NCBI GenBank assembly: GCA_951406725.2
Contig: OX597836.1
Span: 43,152,001 to 43,216,000, forward strand
Length of the DNA: 64,000 bases
Source of the DNA: Octopus vulgaris
Taxonomy: Eukaryota
Reading direction: 5' to 3'
The notes under the pieces: model-generated
Database searches by the model: none
Told to the model about the DNA's origin: nothing
The model's input: the letters and a program-made list of their open reading frames with translations, nothing else
Shown: piece after piece, positions 32,145 through 64,000 of the stretch
Numbering within the stretch: position 1 is the stretch's first letter
Layout: every line of letters starts with the position of its first letter
Program-made: the position numbers and the translations under genes

Positions 32145-32680
32145 CCAGTCGATTATATCGACCCCAGTACGCAACTGGTACTCAATTTATCGACCCCGAA
32201 GGGATGAAAGGCAACGTCGACACGGTGGAATTTGAACTCAGAACGTAACGGCAGACGAAATACCTATTTCTTTACTACCCACAAGGGGCTAAACACAGAG
32301 AGGACAAACAAGGACAGACAAACGGATTAAGTCGATTATATCGACCCCAGTGCGTAACTGGTACTTAATTTATCGATCCCGAAAGGATGAAAGGCAAAGT
32401 CGACCTCGGCGGAATTTGAACTCAGAACGTAACGGCAGACGAAATACCTATTTCAATAGTACCCACAAGGGGCTAAACACAGAGGGGACAAACAAGGACA
32501 GACAAACGGGTTAAGTCGATTATATCAACCCCAGTGCGTAACTGGTACTTAATTTATCGATCCCGAAAGGATGAAAGGCAAAGTCGACCTCGGCGGAATT
32601 TGAACTCAGGATGTAACGGCAGACGAAACACCGCTAAGCATTTGCCCCGACGTGCTAACGTTTCTGCCAGCTCGCAGCCT
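32145..32680 (-). mobile_element. Family 2 SINE multimer
   Basis: Tandem bodies joined at GAAATACCTATTTC. Confidence 0.85.
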
Positions 32681-33611
32681 TTTTTATCTGATTCAATATT
32701 AAAAAGTAACAAGGCGGTGAGCTGGCAGGAACGTCACCGCGCCGGGCAAAATACTTAGCGGCCTTACTTCCATCTTTACGTTTTGAGTTCAAATGCCACC
32801 GAGATTGACTTTACCTTTCATCCTTTCGGGGTCGATAAAATAAGTACCAGTCGAGCATTGGAGTTGATGTAATCGACTCCCCCCTCCCCGCAAAATGCTG
32901 TGGGTTGTAAAGAAATATAATATTTTACACTGTATATCTTCCTATCCATTTATCATTTATACATTCTGTCTTCATTTATTGGTTTCGATACATTGTAGAT
33001 ACCCAGTCAACATCTCCATATTGTTTTCTATCGCCTGCGTCTACAAACCATTTAACAGCTACAGTCAATCTACGGTTTATCTTGCCAAATGTATATCGTG
33101 TTTGTCTCATCAACATCTCGTCAAATTCTACCCGTTGCAACTATTATTTAACATTTACATTCTGTTGATTCAGTCAACACTTTTTCAGAGTGCGTCCAGA
33201 TGACGCATGTACACATTGTTTAATCAATCAACATTTTAAATAGCCTTGTTGAACCAGACATGTACAAGCCGTATGCGATGTAATTTAACACATAAGCGGC
33301 AATACATCTGTTTGACATCGTACTTACAGATTTGCTTTGTCATTGATAAAACGGAAACGGCTACAGATACGTGTTTAACATCTGTTGAAAATATATATTC
33401 AGTTACAAGTGATAATGAGAACTTCCATCGTAGTCTAGAGAAGACACATGGTTAAGAAGTTAATTATATCTTACTTATTAGGTTCTTCCTACGTTTTGAA
33501 GCTTAGCAAGTTTGTCAGCGGTTCCGATATTACGTAATAGGAGATGAAAAGAAAGATTTCAGTCTTATACACATTTTAGTAGCTGAAAGTTGGTTTTCAA
33601 ATATACATAGT

Positions 33612-33745
33612 TTCTCTGTCCCTTTCTGTAGAAGAGCGTAGGCTCGAAACTTAAAATACTTTTTCTATTCCTGAGCGTTATACTAATACATCTGTTTGTT
33701 TTGTACACCACTTGTCTTCGTTTTTTTCTTTTTTTCGTAAACTCT

Positions 33746-33784
<39 letters not shown>

Positions 33785-34004
33785 TATATAGATATAGATA
33801 TAGATATAGATATATATATATATCGCCATGATAGATCGTTAGCCACTACACACATTTTTTTCTCTCCTTGTTTTTTCTGTGTCCCTTTCTGTAGAAGAGC
33901 GTAGGCTCGAAACGTAAAATACGTTTTTCTATTCCTGAGCGTTATACTAATACATCTGTTTTGTACACTATCTGTCTTCGTTTTTTGTTTTTTTAGTAAA
34001 CTCT

Positions 34005-34060
<56 letters not shown>

Positions 34061-34261
34061 CCATGATAGATCGTTAGCCACTACACACATTTTCTTCTCT
34101 CCTTATTTCTCTCTCCTTGTTTTTTCTGTGTCCCTTTCTGTAGAAGAGCGTAGGCACGAAACGTAAAATACTTTTTTCTATTCCTGAGCGTTATACTAAT
34201 ACATCTGTTTGTTTTGTACACCACCTGTCTTCGTCTTTTGTTTGTTCCGTAAACTCTCCCT
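33612..34261 (+). mobile_element. Three tandem Penelope/retrozyme-like units with a variant hammerhead-like motif
   Basis: Units separated by (TA)n, each with CTGTAGAA-GAGC-GTAG-GCTC-GAAACGTA (33626, 33889, 34138; minor variants); related unit at ~19780-19985. Confidence 0.6.
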
Positions 34262-37081
34262 ACATAGTTTTAGGATATATCTTGCGGATGCTATGGGATG
34301 CATCGCCAGTGGTGTTTCTGGGGTTTCGGGGAAATTTTGGGTCTTTAAACATTACATTCGCTCTTCTCAGTTCACCCAGTTGGGGCTGATCAAATCCCGG
34401 GTTGTATCTCAATAGCAGTAAACCACCTATCTGTTCTGTTTATTTAAGGACGCCTAGTGGCCCTCTCTGCAGTTTCAGTGATGGAATGTATGGCTCTCTT
34501 CTTTGCTGCAGCTCTAACTCCAAGCCTAGTCAGAATTTTGCTGAAGGAACGCTCCACAAAACCCCGACAGCCGGCTTCTATTGCCGCGCTACGTACCTGC
34601 CAGCTCCGATTTCATCACCGCTCTACCGCCTAGCAAACTTACACTTATGAACTTCCACCATGTGTTCCTCCCAGGATACAGTTAATTCCCACATTGTCAC
34701 CCGATTGGTACAATTTGAGAAGATCCCTATGTCTGGGTGGATTGTATTTGGTACGATGTTATGAGGGAAATTTAGCCATTCTACGAGATCTACTCTCAGC
34801 TGCTAGTCTGGAGCTATGGAAAAAAAGCATGATAGGCGTTGAAATTTCAGTGAACTGGGCTTCTCTTCGACTCTGAGAAAAGTGGTTACTTCTTTCCTGG
34901 GGTGGTACTTACTGGACTGAATGGCTGTCATCTCCGCAACCGCCCTGAGTAATTGGGAATACGGCGAACCCAAGGACATAGGGTTGGTCACCCGGTTACC
35001 ATTGCGTACATAAATGACCGAGATCAAAACATCTGAACGGGAATCCAGTCCATTGCAGGGTTCAAAAGTAACTATGATGGGATGAGGGAAAGTCGATCAC
35101 ATCGACCCCAGTACCCGAATGGTACTTATTTTATCTACTCCGAAAGGGTTAAAGCAAAGTTGATATAGCAGAATTTGAACTTAGAACGCAAAGAGTGGGA
35201 AGAACTGAAGTTTTGTCCGACGTGTTAACGATTCTGCCAACAGCTCAAAAACAAAGAATGCATCAGTTCCAAGACACCAGGATTCTCTGCTAGAGGAATT
35301 AATAGACTTCTTTTCGTGTTGGCAAAAATGTATAAATTATTTCGATTGATAAAATTAAGTTGATGGTTGAAGAACGTAATTAGTTTTGTATCAAGTTAAT
35401 AGAGAGAGAAGGGGGAGGGGGCAGAAAGAAGTGGATGAGTTAATGAATGGCTGGATGGAGATAGCTACATAGGTAGACTGAGGCAGAGCTGGGTGGAGTG
35501 ATGGATAGAGACAGGCAGACCGAGACAAGTGTTAACTAGCTAGCCAGCTAGATGGCTAGCTAATTAGTTAGCTAGAGAGAAAGGGGAGAGTTAGAAAGAG
35601 AGAGGAGAGAAACAAGTAGAAAGAAAGAAGTGGAATAATTAATGGTAAACAAACCAACACCGGTTTTCAAGTAGCGGTGCGAGACAAGCACAAGACTTGT
35701 AGATATGTACGTTTACATATATATGTATGTATGTATGCATGTATGTATTTATGTATGCATGTATGTATGCATGTATATATTATGTATGCATGTATGTATG
35801 TATGTATGTATGTATGCATGTATGTATGTATGTATTTATGTATGCATGTATGTATGCATGTATATATTATGTATGCATGCATGTATGTATGTATGTATGT
35901 ATGTATGTATGTATGTATGTATGTATGTATGTATGTATGCATGTATGTATGTATGTATGTATGTATGTATGCGACGGCCTTATTTCAGTTCCTGTCTACC
36001 AAAACCACTCACAAAGCTTTGGCCAGCGTCGTACTATAGCAGACGACCCTTGTCCATGCTGCTGCGCAATAGGACTGAACTGAACCCAAGACCACAGGGC
36101 TGGGAAGCAGGCTGTCAGCTACACGGCCCACGCCTGCATCAAGAGAAGGAAATGAAAATAAGACGCGAAGTTGCGATGACACTGAAGTATATGTTTATAT
36201 TTGGGAATGGCTCTGACGATGGAGTGTGATGGTGGCAAAAATCGGGATGATGATAGTGATGGCGGCAGCGGTGACAGTGATGGTAGTGGCGATGGTGGTA
36301 GCGATGGTAGTGGACTTATTGGTCAGTTTGTATTGGTGAGATTTATAACGCCGGTGGCTTGGCAACGATACTGATGATAGAGTAGCTCTCTAATAATTGT
36401 TGTTGCGTAGCAACAGGTCATACTTGACTGAGCAGACACATGATCAAAGGCCTTCCTGACATAACCATCCAGACATTCACTCGTGCATTGTGTACTCGAG
36501 CCTATATCATCTATTGGCGGCGAGCTGGCAGAAACGTTAGCACGCCGGGCGAAATGCTTAGCCGTATTTCGTCTGTCGTTACGTTCCGAGTTCAAATTCC
36601 GCCGAGGTCGACTTTGCCTTTCATCCTTTCGGAGTTGATAAATTAAGTACCAGTTACGCACTGGGGTCGATGTAATCGACTTAATCCCTTTGTCTGTCCT
36701 TGTTTGTCCCCTCTATGTTTAGCCCCTTGTGGGTTGTAAAGAAATATATATTATCTATTGTAATATAGCCTTGCTACTTTTAAAACGGTTAGGAAATAAA
36801 CTGTGACATGTTTGGTTGCTAGTCCTAGTAGATCAAACGGGGTGGTCGTAGGGGCTCCTACCGTTATTCGATGGGGTAGGCAAGGGTGGTGATAATCGAA
36901 ATGTGGTTTCTGTTGTTTTATCCAGCTCTGATCTGATCCTTCAAGCTTTTGATTAAAGGTGTTCTACCTGTAGCTTGCTTCCCAAATATATGGTTCCGGC
37001 ACAGCACCTTGTGTCAGACCAACCAAAACCTTTTGAGTGGATTTTGTAGACGTTAACTGAAAGAAGCCCGTCGTGTATGCG

Positions 37082-48178: not shown

Positions 48179-48342
48179 AACATTATTCTCCCAATATTAT
48201 AGTATAATTGATCTATGATATAATTGTTGTTTTGGACCTGAATATCTTTTAGTTAACATTATTAATGCTTCTTTTGATTACCTTAATTAACCACTTTTTT
48301 TCCCTTATTTTCAGATCTCCAATTCCTCAATAAACTGCCATC

Positions 48343-49029
48343 ATGAACATGTCCATTCTTGCCCTGGCTGTTTTCGCCTCCGTCTTCCTTTTGGTAAACA
48401 GTTCAGTTTTACCCCACGGTGAACACTATGGTGAACACTATGGAAAAGCAGGCCACGATGAAGCCCACCATGGTGTAGCTTCTGCTGAACACGTAGCAAA
48501 CAACGCCTACGCTGAACACGGTGAACACGGTGTGAAAGCCGCCTACGACGTCGGTTACCGCAACCATGAACACGATCACGTGGACAACTATGGACACCAT
48601 GAACACGACGAGGACCACGACAAACACAAGGACGACATGTTGGAAAAATATGGAAACTTTGTTGCTCATGCTGGCCACAACGCATACGGTGGTGAACACA
48701 GTGCTGTAGCTGGGCACGCTGACGTGTACGGCGCTGCAGGTGGACATGGCGGATTTTCCGGTCCCGGTTTTGATGGAGTTGGACTCGGTCACGGTGGTTT
48801 TGGTGGTCACGGTTTCGGAGGTCTTGGTGGCCACGGCGGTTTTGGCCATGGAGGTTTTGCTGGCCATGGTGGTCTTGGTGGTCACGGTGGTTTTGGTGGT
48901 CACGGTGGTTTTGGTGGTGTTGGTGGTCACGGTGGTTTCGGTGGACACGGCTTTGGTGGACATGGTATGGCTGGACACGGTTATGGTGGACATGGTGGTT
49001 ATGGTGGCTATGGCGGATACGGTCATTAA
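48343..49029 (+). CDS. Gene B: secreted His/Gly-rich structural protein (histidine-rich beak protein-like), 228 aa
   Basis: Acceptor at 48314 and GCCATCATG start context; signal-peptide-like MNMSILALAVFASVFLLVNS; His/Glu/Asp-rich middle; about 13 GHG motifs encoded with varied codons; no Cys; AATAAA at 49045 and 49136. Confidence 0.9.
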   Translation: MNMSILALAVFASVFLLVNSSVLPHGEHYGEHYGKAGHDEAHHGVASAEHVANNAYAEHGEHGVKAAYDVGYRNHEHDHVDNYGHHEHDEDHDKHKDDMLEKYGNFVAHAGHNAYGGEHSAVAGHADVYGAAGGHGGFSGPGFDGVGLGHGGFGGHGFGGLGGHGGFGHGGFAGHGGLGGHGGFGGHGGFGGVGGHGGFGGHGFGGHGMAGHGYGGHGGYGGYGGYGH

Positions 49030-49864: not shown

Positions 49865-50286
49865 GGCGGCGAGCTGGCAGAAGCGTTAGCACGCTGGGCG
49901 AAATGCGTAGCCGTATTTCGTCTGCCGTTACATTCTGAGTTCAAATTCCGCCGAGGTCGACTTTGCTTTCATCCTTTCGGGATCGATAAATTAAGTACCA
50001 GTTGCGCACTGGGGTCGATATAATCGACTTTATCCGTTTCTTTGTCCTTGTTTGTTCCCTCTATGTTTAGCCCCTTATGGGTAGTAAAGAAACGTTAGCA
50101 CGCGGTATTTCGTCTGCCGCTATGTTCTGAGTTCAAATTCCACCGAGGTCGACTTTGCTTTTCATACTTTCGGGATCGATAAATTAAGTACCAGTTTCGC
50201 ACTAGGGTCGATGTAATCGACTTAATCCGTTTGTCTGTCCTTGTTTGTCCCCTCTGTGTTTAGCCACTTGTGGATAGTAAAGAAAT
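49865..50286 (+). mobile_element. Family 2 SINE dimer
   Basis: 16-bp TSD TATTACATCTATTCGG at 49846-49861 and 50295-50310. Confidence 0.88.
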
Positions 50287-52325: not shown

Positions 52326-53014
52326 TATTTATAATGGTTTCTGATTTATGCACAAGGTAAGCAATTCTGAAGGAAAAGAATTAGTTGATATAATCTAAAT
52401 GATTGTTACATTACTCCATCGACCCAGAAGAGGTGTAAAGCAAGATTGGCCTCGGCGGAATTTGAACGCAGAACGTAAAGGCGGACGAAATGCCCCTAAG
52501 CATTTTGTCCGGCGTGCTAACGATTCTGCCTTAATAATAGTCTCAAATTTTAGTACAAAGCCAGCAATTTCGTGGGAGGAGAGAAGCCGATTACATCGAT
52601 CCCAACGCTCAACTGGTGCTGATTTTAACGATACTGAAAGAGTAAAAGGTAAAGTCGACCTTGGTGGAATTTGAACTGAGAGCATAAAGATAGGCGAAAT
52701 GTCACCAGGCATTTTCCCTAGCATGCTAACGATTCTGCCAGCTCAATAATATTTAATAATACTTTCTACTGGAGGAAGGAATAAAGTCGATTACATTGAC
52801 CCCAGTATTTCAGTGGTACTTATTTAATCGACTCCGAAAAGATGAAAGGCAAATTCGACCACGGCAGAATTTGAACTCAGAGCATGGAGACTGACGAAAT
52901 ACTACAAAGCATTTTGCCCGGCGTGTTAACGATTCAGCCAGCTCGCCGTCTAACTTATTACCTTAACAATCCTTTCTACTGGAAGCACGGGGCCTCAAAT
53001 TAGGGGGAAGGGAT

Positions 53015-53550
53015 TGAGTCGATTACATCGACCCCAGTACGTAACTGGTACTTATTTAATCAACCCCGAAAGGATGAAAGGCAAAGTCGACCTCTGCGGA
53101 ATTTGAACTCAGAACGTAACGGCAGACGAAATACCTATTTCTTTACTGCCCACAAGGGGCTAAACACAGAGAGGACAAACAAGGACAGACAGACGGATTA
53201 AGTCGATCATATCAACCCCGGTACGTAACTGGTACTTAATTTATCGACCCCGAAAGGATGAAAGGCAAAGTCGACCTCGGCGGAATTTGAACTCAGAACG
53301 TAGTGACAGAAGAAATACCTATTTCTTTATTGCCCACAAGGGGCTAAACACAGAGGGGACAAACAAGGACAGACATAGGTATTAAGTCGATTACATCGAC
53401 CCCAGTGCGTAACTGGTACTTAATTTATCGACCCCGAAAGGATGAAAGGCAAAGTCGACCTCGGCGGAATTTGAACTCACAACGTAACGCAGACGAAATA
53501 CCGCTCGGCATTTCGCCAGGCGTGCTAACGTTTCTGCCAGCCCGCCGCCT
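53015..53550 (-). mobile_element. Family 2 SINE trimer
   Basis: Bodies joined at GAAATACCTATTTC. Confidence 0.85.
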
Positions 53551-57739: not shown

Positions 57740-58156
57740 TATTTCTTTATTGCCCACAAGGGGCTAAACATAGAGGGGACAAACAAGGACAGACAAACGG
57801 ATTAAGTCGATTACATCGACCCCAGTGCGTAACTGGTACTTATTTAATCGACCCCGAAAGGCTGAAATGCAAAGCCGATCTCAGCGGAATTTGAACCCAG
57901 AACGTAGCGGCAGACGAAATACCTATTTCTTTACTACCCACAACGGACTAAACACAGAGAGGACAAACAAGGACAGACAAACGGATTAAGTCGATTATAT
58001 CGACCCCAATGCGTAACTGGTACTTAATTTATCGACCCCAAAAACATGAAAGGCAAAGTCGACCTCGGCGGAATTTGAACTCAGAACGTAGCGGCAGACG
58101 AAATACGGCTAAGCATTTCGCCCGGCGTGCTAACAATTCTGCCAGCTTGCAGCCTT
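57740..58156 (-). mobile_element. Family 2 SINE dimer
   Basis: Junction GAAATACCTATTTC at ~57917-57929. Confidence 0.85.
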
Positions 58157-58292
58157 TTGGCAATTACTACTAATAACACAAATTAATTAATCTTAACGAG
58201 ACACTGCAATTACAATCTGCTCCACCTGTTATAAATACTCAAGTAAACTAGAATATCTACAGCCTGCCAGAAGATGTCGGTGATATTATTAA

Positions 58293-58800
58293 CCCATTGC
58301 TTACCATGAGCCCCATATGGGGATCTGTTAAAGATAGTCTCACTGCCGGTTGTTCGTTGTATTTAAAGTGAATTGCTTATACACATTGCATTTGCAGAGG
58401 TGCGTTTAACAAAATTCAGTAGTTAAAGTTTGTCATTATTATCCCTGGCTAATTCTAGAGGACATTTTATGTCATAAATCGCAGTTTTTGAACTACAAAA
58501 ATATTGTTTTGAAAACGTTTTTTTTTTCTTTAGCCTTTCCCATCTATATCATTCCCTGATATTTCATATACGTTCGCATTTGATACTATAGTTTAAAAAA
58601 AACTCAAATGATTATTATTGCGATTGAACAGAAAACGATAAATATGCTTTTTTTTTTTCAGCGTTCATCATTTGGGATTTTTCGAAAAATTTATCATAAT
58701 TTCCAAAATAATTCACAGGTGAAGAAAAGTTAAATACAGCATATTATTTTAACTCCTAAGACACCTGGCAAAGCCAAAAAATATGAATAAAACAACTGGG
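58293..58800. mobile_element. Possible piggyBac-type MITE
   Basis: TTAA|CCCATTGCTT .. AACAACTGGG|TTAA; TIR match is short. Confidence 0.35.
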
Positions 58801-58923
58801 TTAATACATAAAGGCCTTAAATTGATTTTCATCTCAGCTTATTCATACTTCAATCTAATTTAAGCCTAAGTATTTAAATACCTTTATGCATTGGGTGGTT
58901 TTTATATGGCGTGTATAAAACTA

Positions 58924-59148
58924 TTGGGTTGTCCGGAAAGTTCGTGCCAACTTTTAAAGGAAAGAAAAAGGTCAATAAATACTTGCCATTACATTTTTAA
59001 TCAACCAAATATTAACCATTTTGTTGCATAATGCGTCTCTATCTTTCCTTTAACTTGAAAATACCCTCTTCCCAGAATTGAGGTGCCTGGGAAAGTAAGT
59101 CGAAAGGTAAGATACTATAAATCGGCACGAACTTTCCGGACAACCCAA
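58924..59148 (-). mobile_element. 225-bp mini-mariner of the same family as 30815 and 51760
   Basis: Same TIRs, TA-flanked, larger internal deletion. Confidence 0.9.
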
Positions 59149-59839
59149 TATATTTGAAAGAATTAATGACTTTTATCTGAAACTCCGAGTGAAGTCCGTT
59201 TCCCCAGAATATTCAGAAATTACTTCTGATTGCATTACCTATGGTGATGTCTTCCGGCTTTACGTTCTGAGTTCAAATATCACCGAGGTTGACTCTTGTT
59301 CTTTCGGTGGTCGATAAAATAAATACCAGTCAAGTACTAGGGGCAATGTAATCGACTAAAGCCCTCCCTCAAAATTCTGGTCCTGTGCCTTCAGTAGAAA
59401 AGACCAGCAATGGTGACGTCATAACTGCTTTTAAAAAAACCACCTTCATTCAGCCCTCATAGCGCATACAAAGCTCACCACTCGTAAACAAGACCATTAA
59501 GGTTGCTGATGAGCATTTATAATTATACAGGAACTCAGTTTAGCTTTTAAGATATCACAGCTGGTATACACATTGTCGAATATTCTCTTTTTTCTTTTCT
59601 TTTCTTTTATTTGTTTCAGTCATTTGACTGTGACCATGCTGGAGCACCGCCTTTAGGCAAGCAAATCGACCCCAAGACTTATTCTTTGTAAGCCTAATAC
59701 TTATTCTATCGGTCTCTTTTGTCGAACTGCTAAGTTACGGGGACGTAAACACACCAGCATCGGTTGTCAAGCGATGTTGGGGGAACAAACGCAGACACAC
59801 AAACATATACATATACATACATATAAATATATATATATA

Positions 59840-61107
59840 CGAGGGGCGTTCAATAAGTAATGCCCTTGACCCACTTGCAGTTGTTTGATTTAGCTGAAAG
59901 TTTGCATGTGCACTTATTTATACCTCTATAGATTAAGTGGCGAATTACAGCTCTGAACTAATTGTGGTTTCTGATTTACAGGTGTTTGAACTGAGTCAAG
60001 TGTGAAATAGAGCCTGTTGAGTGTCGAGCAGTGATCTGGTTTTTGTATTTGAAAGGACGCACACCACGGGAGACTTTTGATGAAATGAAAGTAACTTATG
60101 GTGATGATGCCCCATCATATGACCTTGTAAAACGCTGGCATTGTGAATTCAAACATAGTCGGAACTCTGTGGAAACAGCTCCCAGATCTGGTTGCCCCCT
60201 TTTGCCGTTGATGAGACGTCTGTCCGTCAAGTTGAGGCTGCCATTTTGGAAGGTCAACGCATAACTATTTGCCAAATAGCCCATAAGGTCAAGATTAGTA
60301 CCGGGTCTGTGGAAACTATCATTCATGACCATTTGCATATGCAAAAGGTGTCTGCCAGATGGATTTCCAGGTTGCTCCCACCTTTCCAGAAGCAAGAACG
60401 CGTTGAGTGCTCGAGGATGAATTTGGAGATGTGCCAAGAAGATGAGTCAAAATTTTTCAAAAGACTGATCACACAGGATAAAACCTGGGTCCATCACTAT
60501 GATCCATAGACCAAAGCCCAGTCAATGCAGTGAAAGCACCGTGACTCACCTCCTCTAAAGAAGGCAAGGGTGCAGCCCTCCGCTGACAAGGTTATGCTCA
60601 CAGTCTTCTGGGACCAGGACGGAGTAGTGATGACAGATTTCCTGGCAAAGGGTACCACAATTACAGGAGCCTATTATGCTTCACTTTTGAGGAAATTAAG
60701 AGAAGCTATCAAAATCAAGAGGCGGGGCAAGATCAGAAAAGGCATCCTCCTCCTGCAGGACAACGCTCCGGTCCACAACTCGCGTGTCGCCAGATCAGAA
60801 GCACAGGCGTGCAGCTATGAACTCCTCCCCTTGCACCCTCTGATTTTCACCTCTTCCCAGCCATGAAGTTGATTTTGAAAGGAAAGCGTTTCCCAGATGA
60901 TGCAGCCTTGATTTCTGAAGTCACGTCGTGGTTGGAGGACCAAGCTGGGGTCTTCTACAAAAACGGTCTCCAGAGCTGTATCAAACGATGGGAGAAATGC
61001 ATAACTCTGGGTAGTTCCTATGTAGAAAAAGACTAATAACTGTGCCAGGTGTCGTTGCTCTACTGCTATGGTAAGTGGGTCAGGGGCATTACTTATTGAA
61101 CGCCCCT

Positions 61108-61109
<2 letters not shown>
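59840..61109 (+). mobile_element. Full-length (1270 bp) inactive mariner inserted in the TA tract of a family 1 SINE
   Basis: TIRs CRAGGGGCGTTCAATAAGTAATGCCC, TA-flanked; WISRLL, ITQDKTWVHHYDP, KVMLTVFWD, LLQDNAPVH; stops, frameshift and loss of YSPDL; SINE halves at ~59600-59820 and 61143-61308. Confidence 0.93.
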
Positions 61110-61144
<35 letters not shown>

Positions 61145-61682
61145 GACGGGCTTCTTTCAGTTTCCGTCTACCAAATCCACTCACAAGGCTTTGGTCGGCC
61201 CGAGGCTATAGTAGAAAACACTTGCCCAAGATGCCACGCAGTGGGACTGAACCCGGAACCATGTGGTTGGTAAGCAAGCTACTTACCACACAGCCATTTC
61301 TGCGCCTAAAACATATTGTAAAACATATTACTATCAACTTATGTATGTGAAGGTGCGTGGCTCAGTGGTAAGGTGTAGGGCACTCACGATCGTGAGGGCG
61401 TGGTTTGACTCCCCAACCGGCTACGCGTTGTGTTCTTGAGCAAAATACTCTATTTCGCGATGCTCTAGTCTTCAGCTGTAAATGGGTAAGCCTGCGACAA
61501 ATTAATCTTCCGATCAGGGGATTGTTGGCCTACGTGACTACCTATGCAGTAGAGTAGCATCATTTGAAAGCTAAAATTATGCAAAGCGCATTGTGACCAG
61601 CGATGTAAGACAACATCTGATAATCTGGTCCATCACGTGATCACATGATAACTTATGTAGCCTATGATACTGTTTTGCGTTG

Positions 61683-61709
<27 letters not shown>

Positions 61710-61722
<13 letters not shown>

Positions 61723-62075
61723 GGCAAAATGTCTGTCTGTGTGCGTGTCCTTTATACAAATCCACATTTTTTCAGTTAGAGGGCTCGAACTTTCTATGGT
61801 AATTCAAACCCGTCCAAGGGTGGTCGTGCACATCTTTACATTTCCCCAGTCACCCCACAAAGCCATTTTAAAAAATCAATAGAAGTGACTTTTTCGTGAA
61901 TTTTCTATCCAAAACCCAATCAAAATACCCGAAACTTGATACGCCAATTGAATGCCAGCTAGCTGTTTGTGAGTGGTCAGAGATTTGGACAGTACTCGCG
62001 TGTATGTGCGCACGCACGCAGCTATATATGCATGCACTAGCGTTATGACCCGGTGTTGTTGGGTCAGAGTTCTAG
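61710..62075 (+). mobile_element. Non-autonomous Helitron-like element
   Basis: 3' hairpin TGACCC..GGGTCA followed by CTAG|T at 62072-62076; 5' end lost in (TA)n. Confidence 0.55.
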
Positions 62076-62285
62076 TCTGACGATAAAATATTTACTGCTT
62101 TTCGTAGTAGACAGCCGATGTTTCAGCTTAAATGACTTACTTTCAGTCTTACAGATGATGTTGTTTGTTTGCAACGAATTATACAGTCTTTAAAGTGAAA
62201 ACTAGCTGGAAATTTCTAGCTTGTTTGTGGATGACATCACCATATTTGGTAACCAAAGAGTAACATAACAAAAACAAAACAAAAA

Positions 62286-62871
62286 AAATTGTGATTGCTT
62301 GCATATTCATTCTTAAAGCGTTCTGGCTGATCCGAACATAAATATGCTTATAGCTGTTGTATTTGTCACATGAGAACAGCTTCTCCTTTACGACCAATAC
62401 GTGTTCGTAGCTCATTCTATTCGTTAATTCAACGGAATCCAGGTCACCGCTGTTTCGACATGCTATGTCTCGTCAGACAGAAATTGTGATTGCTTGCGTA
62501 TTCATTCTTAAAACGTTCTGGCTGATCCGAACGTAAATATGCTTATAGCTGTTGTATTTGTCACATGGGAACAGCTTCTCCTTTACGACCAATACGTGTT
62601 CGTAGCTCATTCTATTCGTTAATTCAACGGAATCCAGGTCACCGCTGTTTCGACATGCTATGTCTCGTCAGACAGAAATTGTGATTGCTTGCGTATTCAT
62701 TCTTAAAACGTTCTGGCTGATCCGAACGTAAATATGCTTATAGCTGTTGTATTTGTCACATGGGAACAGCTTCTCCTTTACGACCAATACGTATTCGTAG
62801 CACATTCTATTCGTTAATTCAACGGAATCTGGGACACCGCTGTTTCGACATGCTATGTCTCATCAGCCAGA
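62286..62871 (-). mobile_element. 3 x 195-bp tandem array, each unit with a hammerhead motif (retrozyme/Penelope-like)
   Basis: Unit starts 62286, 62481, 62676; GTTTCGACATGCTATGTCTCRTCAG at 62452, 62647 and 62842. Confidence 0.8.
62828..62871 (-). ncRNA. Type I hammerhead ribozyme, complete consensus core
   Basis: Minus strand TCTGG-CTGATGA-GACAT-AGC-ATGTC-GAAACA-GCGG-TGTC-CCAGA; all three stems pair. Confidence 0.88.
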
Positions 62872-63060
62872 AGTATCCAGACCAATGAATCTAAGAAGAG
62901 CCGGTGGCTTTGTGATAAACTGTTTGCTGATCCATGCCGATATCTGACAACCGATAACGAATCATCATACGCACAGTAAGTAGTCAGATTCGAAACGATG
63001 ACGAATCTAATATGACATTGATTAATATTAAATGTGAACGCATCTCCAGTTAAATTTACA

Positions 63061-63353
63061 TCTTTATATATAAAAGTGAAGTTGTGTGTCTGTCTCCTAC
63101 GATTTAGATTCCTAACTACTCCCACATTTTGCGGTGCAGTTTAACCAAAACTAAATATCTTCATAGTCGTGATTCATATCGAGCCCTTCTGTATTAGCGC
63201 GCGACTACGATGAGTCTACGATTTAAAAAAAATTACCATCATTTTTCCCCATTTTTAATGCATTTTTTTACTATTTTTTGGCTATAACGCTCTAAAAATG
63301 CTTATATAGTTATTTCCATTACAAACCCGAGCAACGCCGGACGATATTGCTAG
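63061..63353 (+). mobile_element. Non-autonomous Helitron
   Basis: A|TC start, subterminal CCCGAGCAACGCCGG hairpin, CTAG|T end. Confidence 0.8.
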
Positions 63354-63464
63354 TTTACTATAAATCCATTTAACTAAACATTTCCTCACTTCCCAATTTG
63401 GACAACATCAACAAAATATCTTCTTGCTCTTTTACTCTTTTACTTGTTTCAGTCATTTGACTGA

Positions 63465-63625
63465 AGGCGTAGGAGTGGCTGTGTGGCAAGTAGCTTACTT
63501 GGTTCCGAGTTCAGTCCCTCTGCGTGGCACCTTGGGCAAGTGCCTTCTACTATAGCCTCGGGCCGACCAAAGCCTTGTGAGTGAATTTGGTAGACGGAAA
63601 CTGAAGGAAGCCTGTCGTATATATG

Positions 63626-63676
<51 letters not shown>

Positions 63677-63886
63677 TTGTGTGTCTGTCTTTGTCCTCAA
63701 AACATCGCTTGACAACCGATGCTGGTGTGTTTACGTCCCCGTAACTTAGAGGTTCGGCAAAAGCGACCGATAGAATAAGTACTAGGCTTACAAAGAATAA
63801 GTCATGGGATCGATTTGCTCGAATAAAAGCGGTGCTCCAGCATGGCCACAGTCAAACGACTGAAACAAGTAAAAGAGTAAAAGAGT
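63465..63886 (+). mobile_element. Family 1 SINE
   Basis: Homology to 31402-31796. Confidence 0.85.
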
Positions 63887-64000
63887 ATAACAAAGAGGCC
63901 TCCTGAGCCCCTAACGTTAAATTCCACTAAAAGAAATACCCAGACCTACTAATAAACAATCTGTATCTTATATGATGAGTCTGCTTGTTTATTATTCCCG

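Follow-up and report, generated by a model that had tools for sequence, protein, structure and literature searches.

The locus described here raises the question of whether a short tandem array of hammerhead ribozymes represents a retrozyme whose monomer is the repeat itself, or whether the repeat arose in another way. The array lies in a stretch of 64 000 nt of Octopus vulgaris DNA (the window), and an earlier note, made from the letters alone, had read it as three 195 bp units with one intact and two identically disabled hammerheads.

One intact hammerhead in a 195 bp array

TRF identified a tandem array at 62286–62872 with a period of 195, 3.0 copies and 97 % matches, and the three repeats are therefore real. 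All are read on the minus strand, with unit 1 at 62677–62871, unit 2 at 62482–62676 and unit 3 at 62287–62481. Unit 1 contains a type I hammerhead at 62828–62871 (minus strand), in which the core CUGAUGA (62866–62860) is followed by a 5 bp stem II, GAAA (62846–62843) and a 3 bp stem III with a 4 nt loop, and the cleavage side consists of GUC, with C17 at 62833, and a 5 bp stem I. The features of this type were all present (CUGANGA, GAAA, a UH core, stems I–III paired and stem I open), with 12 of 12 examined pairs able to form. This reading of the core and stems bears out the fully paired structure with a GUC site that had been proposed for the minus strand, and the position of C17 agrees with the cut predicted between 62833 and 62832. 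The hammerheads of unit 2 (62633–62676, minus strand) and unit 3 (62438–62481, minus strand) are identical to one another and have neither the U16.1 nor the paired stem I of a type I hammerhead: U16.1 is changed to A, the first stem I pair is broken and the distal strand of stem I is absent. The change of GUC to GAC and the broken stem I previously noticed in these units were recovered, with differences at unit positions 5, 38, 41 and 42.

A pattern of the core and stems had eight exact matches in the 2.8 Gb genome, the one in the window included, compared with none for a reversed control, indicating that the unit 1 hammerhead is not a chance occurrence. An Rfam search of 58000–64000 (E≤1) returned 11 matches, all to microsatellites and none to a hammerhead model. 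In a folding model without tertiary contacts, the hammerhead fold of unit 1 lay 14.0 kcal/mol above the fold of lowest energy, while the gap was 4.6, 4.9 and 6.0 kcal/mol in three fully paired relatives; this contrast is weak, since a further fully paired relative (L041) was also 13.2 kcal/mol above its minimum. Ensemble probabilities of the hammerhead fold were tiny in intact and broken heads alike. A competing hairpin, and hence misfolding, is predicted for the unit 1 head. The palindrome of loop III has been lost in all three units. A dimeric double hammerhead formed between units was considered and rejected, as loop III is non-palindromic everywhere and units 2 and 3 are without U16.1.

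According to the available text of Li et al. 2026 (10.64898/2026.07.22.740005), two consecutive complete heads are required for an active non-LTR retrozyme, while in the 195 bp array one head of three is intact. Because two cuts would be needed and the one intact head is predicted to misfold, no 195 nt monomer or circle is expected. The array is predicted to yield no circles, and a minus-strand transcript could be cleaved at most once, at 62833/62832. Changes from the family described below were found at 5 of 46 positions in the unit 1 head and at 44 of 266 elsewhere, without a clear deficit, and this head appears to be better kept than those of most relatives.

The 195 bp unit is not the mobile unit

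A genome search with unit 1 gave 42 matches (best 40 of 220 candidates scored), which comprised the three units followed by copies with 72–82 % identity; over most of the unit, copies outside the array did not exceed 79 % identity among these best 40 of 220 candidates. The junction between units, searched with up to two mismatches, had two matches in the genome, both inside the array. Among 83 family loci, six other irregular direct junctions were found and none was of the 195 nt type seen in the window. The proposal that the 195-mer is a repeated genomic unit is thus largely refuted, as its junction was matched only in the array and no other copy scored exceeds 79 % identity; genome searches of this kind score the best candidates alone.

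Homology to other copies does not stop at the hammerhead but extends upstream for a further 131 nt, as far as 63002, which had been overlooked. When a profile of the family was compared with the window, positions 1–329 matched 62999–62688 and two pieces of positions 143–329 followed downstream. The window therefore holds one full copy of an ORF-less, retrozyme-type hammerhead family with a unit of about 326 nt (62683–63002, minus strand), which ends at the family's short 3′ end (+5). Its 5′ 131 nt (62872–63002, minus strand) are single and unduplicated and carry the distal 5′ strand of an extended stem I; on the 63002 side, this upstream homology joins sequence that lies past the end of the 195-mer in relatives. 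Unit 1 corresponds to the 3′ portion of the insertion as first made, together with some 6 nt of flanking DNA. The 195 bp unit starts inside stem I, away from the cut site, and ends about 6 nt into the flank past the short end, with a 2 nt TT microhomology at the junction. No convincing target-site duplication was seen. As the family unit is about 326 nt, intact relatives would release RNAs of about 326 nt and not of about 195 nt as had been supposed.

An old and dispersed family of ribozyme units

Ten head-to-tail periods measured in relatives ranged from 319 to 338 bp. The family profile has 329 positions and was built from 42 segments; the family set consists of 91 loci outside the window, or 83 once eight repeated places were dropped, with a few short or weak matches among them. 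Divergence from the family majority at non-CpG positions had a median of 17 % (range 8–30 %) in 70 pieces of more than 100 positions, drawn from the first three of four locus searches. The full copy in the window, with 13.7 % non-CpG divergence and ordinary CpG loss, falls within this range. In the majority head, stem I has 6 bp, stem II has 4 bp and stem III is short and capped by a palindromic loop, a geometry that corresponds to the canonical metazoan type as presented in the available part of PMC4209133. Core columns varied less than other columns (22 of 269 versus 512 of 3662 cells in loci from the 195-mer search, cells not being independent), as would be expected if source copies needed the ribozyme. 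Intact heads were present in nine of 59 relatives, a set enriched for good heads, and all nine came from head-targeted searches; among loci picked with the 195-mer the count was 0 of 29.

The family unit is ORF-less, lies within 150–450 bp and carries a canonical type I hammerhead. It is dispersed over the 83 loci and occurs head to tail, the longest array seen being slightly more than two units. On these features of sequence and distribution, the family appears to belong to a known class, the non-LTR retrozymes, of which it would be an old, dispersed and decayed member. No young copy was found in the searches. No paper describing octopus retrozymes was found, and supplements may list molluscan families like this one. 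Two copies lying 1800 bp apart (1391–1642 in each of L045 and L049) are 96.8 % identical, have fully paired heads and are separated by unrelated sequence; they may reflect a local re-insertion or form a subfamily of their own.

Insertion scars and the search for an autonomous partner

In the 83 loci, 99 3′ ends were measured, of which 22 continue into the start of a next unit and 77 are terminal. The terminal ends fell mainly into two groups, with 41 at −5 to +15 and 23 at +38 to +52, while eight lay between these and five outside; tail values depend on scoring, and single values differ between measurements. The two preferred ends are thus about 40 nt apart, and their distances downstream from the cleavage site of the ribozyme (profile position 184) are about 150 and 190 nt; neither coincides with it. 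The 5′ ends are scattered, indicating 5′ truncation, and 16 loci have arms arranged head to head. Nine of the ten head-to-head pairs with both ends measurable combine one short end (≤13) with one long end (≥32), L008 having two short ends; four of the ten pairs came from a search pattern that extended to +9 on one arm, so that a long end was favoured on that arm but not a short end on the opposite one.

The family therefore displays 5′ truncation, partial tandems, inverted 5′ copies and a 30–40 nt tail. The same insertion features are described for Penelope-like elements in the available text of Craig et al. (10.1101/2021.04.23.441226), and an optional tail of 30–40 nt has been tied to two reverse transcription start sites in that of Frangieh et al. 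(PMC11167929). There is an even chance, in our estimate, that these scars record twin-primed reverse transcription, by a Penelope-type enzyme, of a single small ribozyme RNA that may have been circular, from two fixed sites about 40 nt apart, one for each strand. If so, the Penelope tail and the inverted 5′ copy would be explained in one step, and this route would have served retrozymes from the time of an old expansion onwards. The suggestion in the earlier note that the array is a cephalopod retrozyme or a tandem Penelope pseudo-LTR was accordingly sound as to kind, with a retrozyme-type family and Penelope-type insertion, and wrong as to the length of the unit.

Matches to PF01541 (GIY-YIG) numbered 148, and none of the 30 inspected, at 1.5 kb on each side, had a family copy nearby; an inspection of this size could miss a rare full-length copy. 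An autonomous Penelope-like element, with an ORF for reverse transcriptase and GIY-YIG joined to the unit, was found neither among these 30 of 148 loci nor in the flanks of the units. No shared sequence other than the unit itself followed the tail in 26 loci compared, and among the matches listed, a flank-against-flank BLAST search gave only those of SINE, Helitron and microsatellite type. Many of the GIY-YIG matches in the genome sit in open frames of 781 aa, candidate Penelope-like elements which make it plausible that enzymes of this type act in trans. Seven of the inspected loci (L073, L077, L091, L092, L095, L097 and L098) have in common a tandem motif that contains a hammerhead-like UUGAUGA…GAAAC pattern; the GIY-YIG match is several hundred bases away from this motif, which is probably the pLTR of a young Penelope family.

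Relationship of the three units

The three units differ at 11 positions in total. Unit 2 agrees with unit 3 at seven of seven diagnostic sites in positions 5–79 and with unit 1 at four of four in positions 109–179, has no private base, and is consequently identical to unit 3 over positions 1–108 and to unit 1 over positions 80–195. A single switch of type is given by two of 330 orderings of these sites. Unit 2 appears to be a recombinant, unit-3-like in front and unit-1-like behind, and its pattern matches that of an unequal exchange or slippage in a dimer of units 1 and 3, with the crossover within the identical stretch 80–108. Since the front of unit 2 is of the unit 3 type, its disabled head would have been copied together with that of unit 3: the two heads are indeed identically disabled, as had been noticed, and would reflect one history of disabling copied once rather than two.

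Unit 3 differs from unit 1 at 11 of 195 positions and is probably the older local duplicate. In 184 columns, units 1 and 3 have 24 common differences from the family majority, compared with four private to unit 1 and seven private to unit 3; other family copies carry no more than seven of these 24. This suggests that the duplication was late, after most of the decay at this site, and a lost source subfamily could explain some of the common differences. The head contains four of the seven private changes of unit 3, three of them within 5 nt (P=0.04 in a post hoc test). The truncated copies in the window lie downstream of the full copy, whereas the opposite order was found in 13 partial tandems of the family. 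The start within stem I, the included flank letters, the TT microhomology and the downstream position together fit a duplication at the DNA level better than one by reverse transcription.

Origin of the array

The array very probably represents the 195 bp at the 3′ end of a single old copy of the family with units of about 326 nt, likely duplicated in place, likely expanded to three units by unequal exchange and predicted not to produce circles. The architecture at the locus is that of a single family unit ending at the shorter of the fixed 3′ ends, and this unit would have been written there from family RNA by a Penelope-type enzyme acting in trans. Neutral decay would have brought the copy to about 14 % from the family, after which a tandem duplication of microhomology type, which began in stem I and took in about 6 nt of flank, may have produced two units. 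These would have diverged by 11 changes, in the course of which the downstream head lost U16.1 and stem I. The chimeric pattern of unit 2 is visible in its diagnostic sites, and an unequal crossover or slippage in the identical stretch 80–108 would account for it.

That the 195-mer is a retrozyme monomer formed by rolling-circle reverse transcription, with intact relatives releasing circles of about 195 nt, accords with the head-to-tail units, the type I hammerhead, a length in the size range reported for animal retrozymes and the fact that three of the seven 5′ changes spare the core. It is scarcely credible now that the genome searches with the unit and its junction have placed the repeat at a single locus in a family with units of about 326 nt; moreover, decay private to the locus is common to the units, and the array, with one intact head, lacks two consecutive complete heads. 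An improbable variant, which would leave the local duplication history unchanged, is that the unit of about 326 nt is a pseudo-LTR, solo or in partial tandem, left by an autonomous Penelope-like element that has died out. The two 3′ ends about 40 nt apart, the 5′ truncation and the head-to-head arms are Penelope hallmarks, and the available text of Li et al. 2026 (10.64898/2026.07.22.740005) derives retrozymes from pLTRs. A pseudo-LTR is, however, difficult to reconcile with the sequence past the tail, where the same unit restarts (22 of 99 3′ ends, with more than two units in L100) and other shared sequence never appears in the loci compared. The family head is also canonical (6 bp stem I, 4 bp stem II, palindromic loop III) and not of the minimal Penelope-like type, and 0 of 30 inspected GIY-YIG loci matched the family.

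It is unlikely, if somewhat less so, that the locus is a dimer in which unit 2 is an assembly artefact joining halves of units 3 and 1. The 195 bp joint and disabled-head alleles were present in contigs of all four DNA runs compared with unit 1; with X1 set aside as a possible source, the runs come from three studies and carry three organism labels, and their sequences barely differ from the window. In X4, one contig joins a 3′ half of the unit 1 type to a head of the unit 3 type at a depth of 22.6, compared with 24.8 for unit 1, which is what a dimer would give and, like the absence of private bases from unit 2, favours the artefact. In X3, by contrast, the disabled-head contig stops at position 108 and is followed by two contigs, one for each allele of position 109, as would result from a recombinant of the unit 2 type, and in X1 the disabled head has twice the depth of unit 1 (48.8 versus 24.7), with breaks that do not match unit 2 of the reference exactly. 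A polymorphism of copy number fits all of the runs better than a dimer. These contigs give a hint of copy-number variation between samples, and not proof, because contig depth is not copy number. Selection for the unit 1 ribozyme, cutting a host or local transcript while its duplicates were silenced, is very unlikely. The core of unit 1 is intact while those of most relatives are broken, and its contigs show only 0–1 differences in the three runs with listed unit 1 contigs, which carry three organism labels; yet these organisms are near-identical over the whole stretch, so that no constraint is demonstrated. The changes in the head show no clear deficit, a competing fold is predicted, at least nine other copies are intact and the locus was chosen because its head is intact. 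A late local duplication with a recombinant middle unit thus remains the preferred account of the array.

Neighbouring elements

Helitrons begin with TC after an A and end with a hairpin and CTAG before a T. A non-autonomous Helitron-like element with both of these termini lies at 63061–63353 (plus strand; CTAG at 63350–63353), and a second element at 61685–62075 (plus strand) is Helitron-like by its 3′ end, with a hairpin and CTAG (62072–62075) before T. The array had been described as lying between two Helitrons, which holds for both 3′ ends and for the 5′ end of the right-hand element; the 5′ end of the left-hand element is lost in a TA run. The right-hand element matches flanks of other family loci at unrelated distances, and both elements are neighbours that do not belong to the family. 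A role for the Helitrons in the duplication was considered and rejected, as the gaps to the two elements are 59 and 211 bp and Helitrons do not adjoin the unit at other family loci.

Further repeats were observed in the window. At 33611–34266 (plus strand), a 249 bp unit is present in 2.5 tandem copies, each with a TA run and a motif resembling a minimal hammerhead with a palindromic minimal stem III; its core is CUGUAGA, with U in place of A6, and there is an extra base before stem II. Relatives of this tandem occur in the GIY-YIG loci L074 and L076, and that in L076 also has U at position 6. Five arrays of two or three copies of a 184–193 bp unit (7593–8151, 32147–32632, 49913–50285, 53011–53502 and 57740–58106) belong to a very abundant dispersed repeat that is also frequent in the flanks of other loci. 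By translation, 60096–61040, 17605–18705 and 25412–26965 presumably hold the relics of one mariner-type transposase and two LINE-type reverse transcriptases. An open frame of 231 aa at 48334–49029 (plus strand) begins like a signal peptide, is rich in His in its middle and contains GGHGGFG repeats; we take it to resemble the His/Gly-rich structural proteins of the cephalopod beak. Another, of 256 aa at 15628–16398 (plus strand), has a signal-peptide-like start and a body rich in Tyr, Asn and Pro.

Comparison with known systems

The parent family resembles the metazoan non-LTR retrozymes, as characterized in the available text of PMC7229834 and 10.64898/2026.07.22.740005, in being ORF-less and head to tail, with units of a few hundred nucleotides, a low GC content and a type I hammerhead of canonical form, and in having many copies that are monomers or truncated. 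It differs from them in being old and decayed, and the 195 bp period of the window differs further as a private truncation with one intact head. With Penelope-like elements, as far as these are covered in the available text of 10.1101/2021.04.23.441226, PMC11167929 and PMC4209133, the family has in common 5′ truncation, partial tandems, an inverted 5′ copy, an optional 30–40 nt tail and fixed ends that lie downstream of the ribozyme cut and not at it. In contrast to those elements, it has no reverse transcriptase or GIY-YIG ORF among the loci inspected, and its head is canonical, not minimal. In vitro, the choice of start site did not differ between the DNA strands according to the available text of Frangieh et al. 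(PMC11167929), while nine of ten pairs in the family combine a short and a long end. In the papers compared here, the Penelope route for retrozymes has been proposed from co-occurrence and the phylogeny of pLTRs; the parent family adds an old and independent example of canonical-hammerhead retrozymes with Penelope insertion scars.

The locus itself, a decayed repeat, is of little importance. It does give cause for caution, since screens for tandem repeats with hammerheads may mistake a DNA duplication that followed insertion for a retrozyme monomer, so that the length of the unit comes out wrong and inactivation seems to have happened repeatedly. Minisatellites and VNTRs derived from transposable elements arise by tandem duplication and unequal crossover. 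Such an origin is also discussed in the available text of Li et al. 2026 (10.64898/2026.07.22.740005), where local amplification by unequal crossover after insertion is expected. The array in the window is similar to these in its single locus, its recombinant middle unit and its probable copy-number variation, and differs from them in that the duplicated piece contains a ribozyme motif. The 195 bp array is most likely a fossil, in which a portion of an old retrozyme copy was duplicated locally at a late stage.
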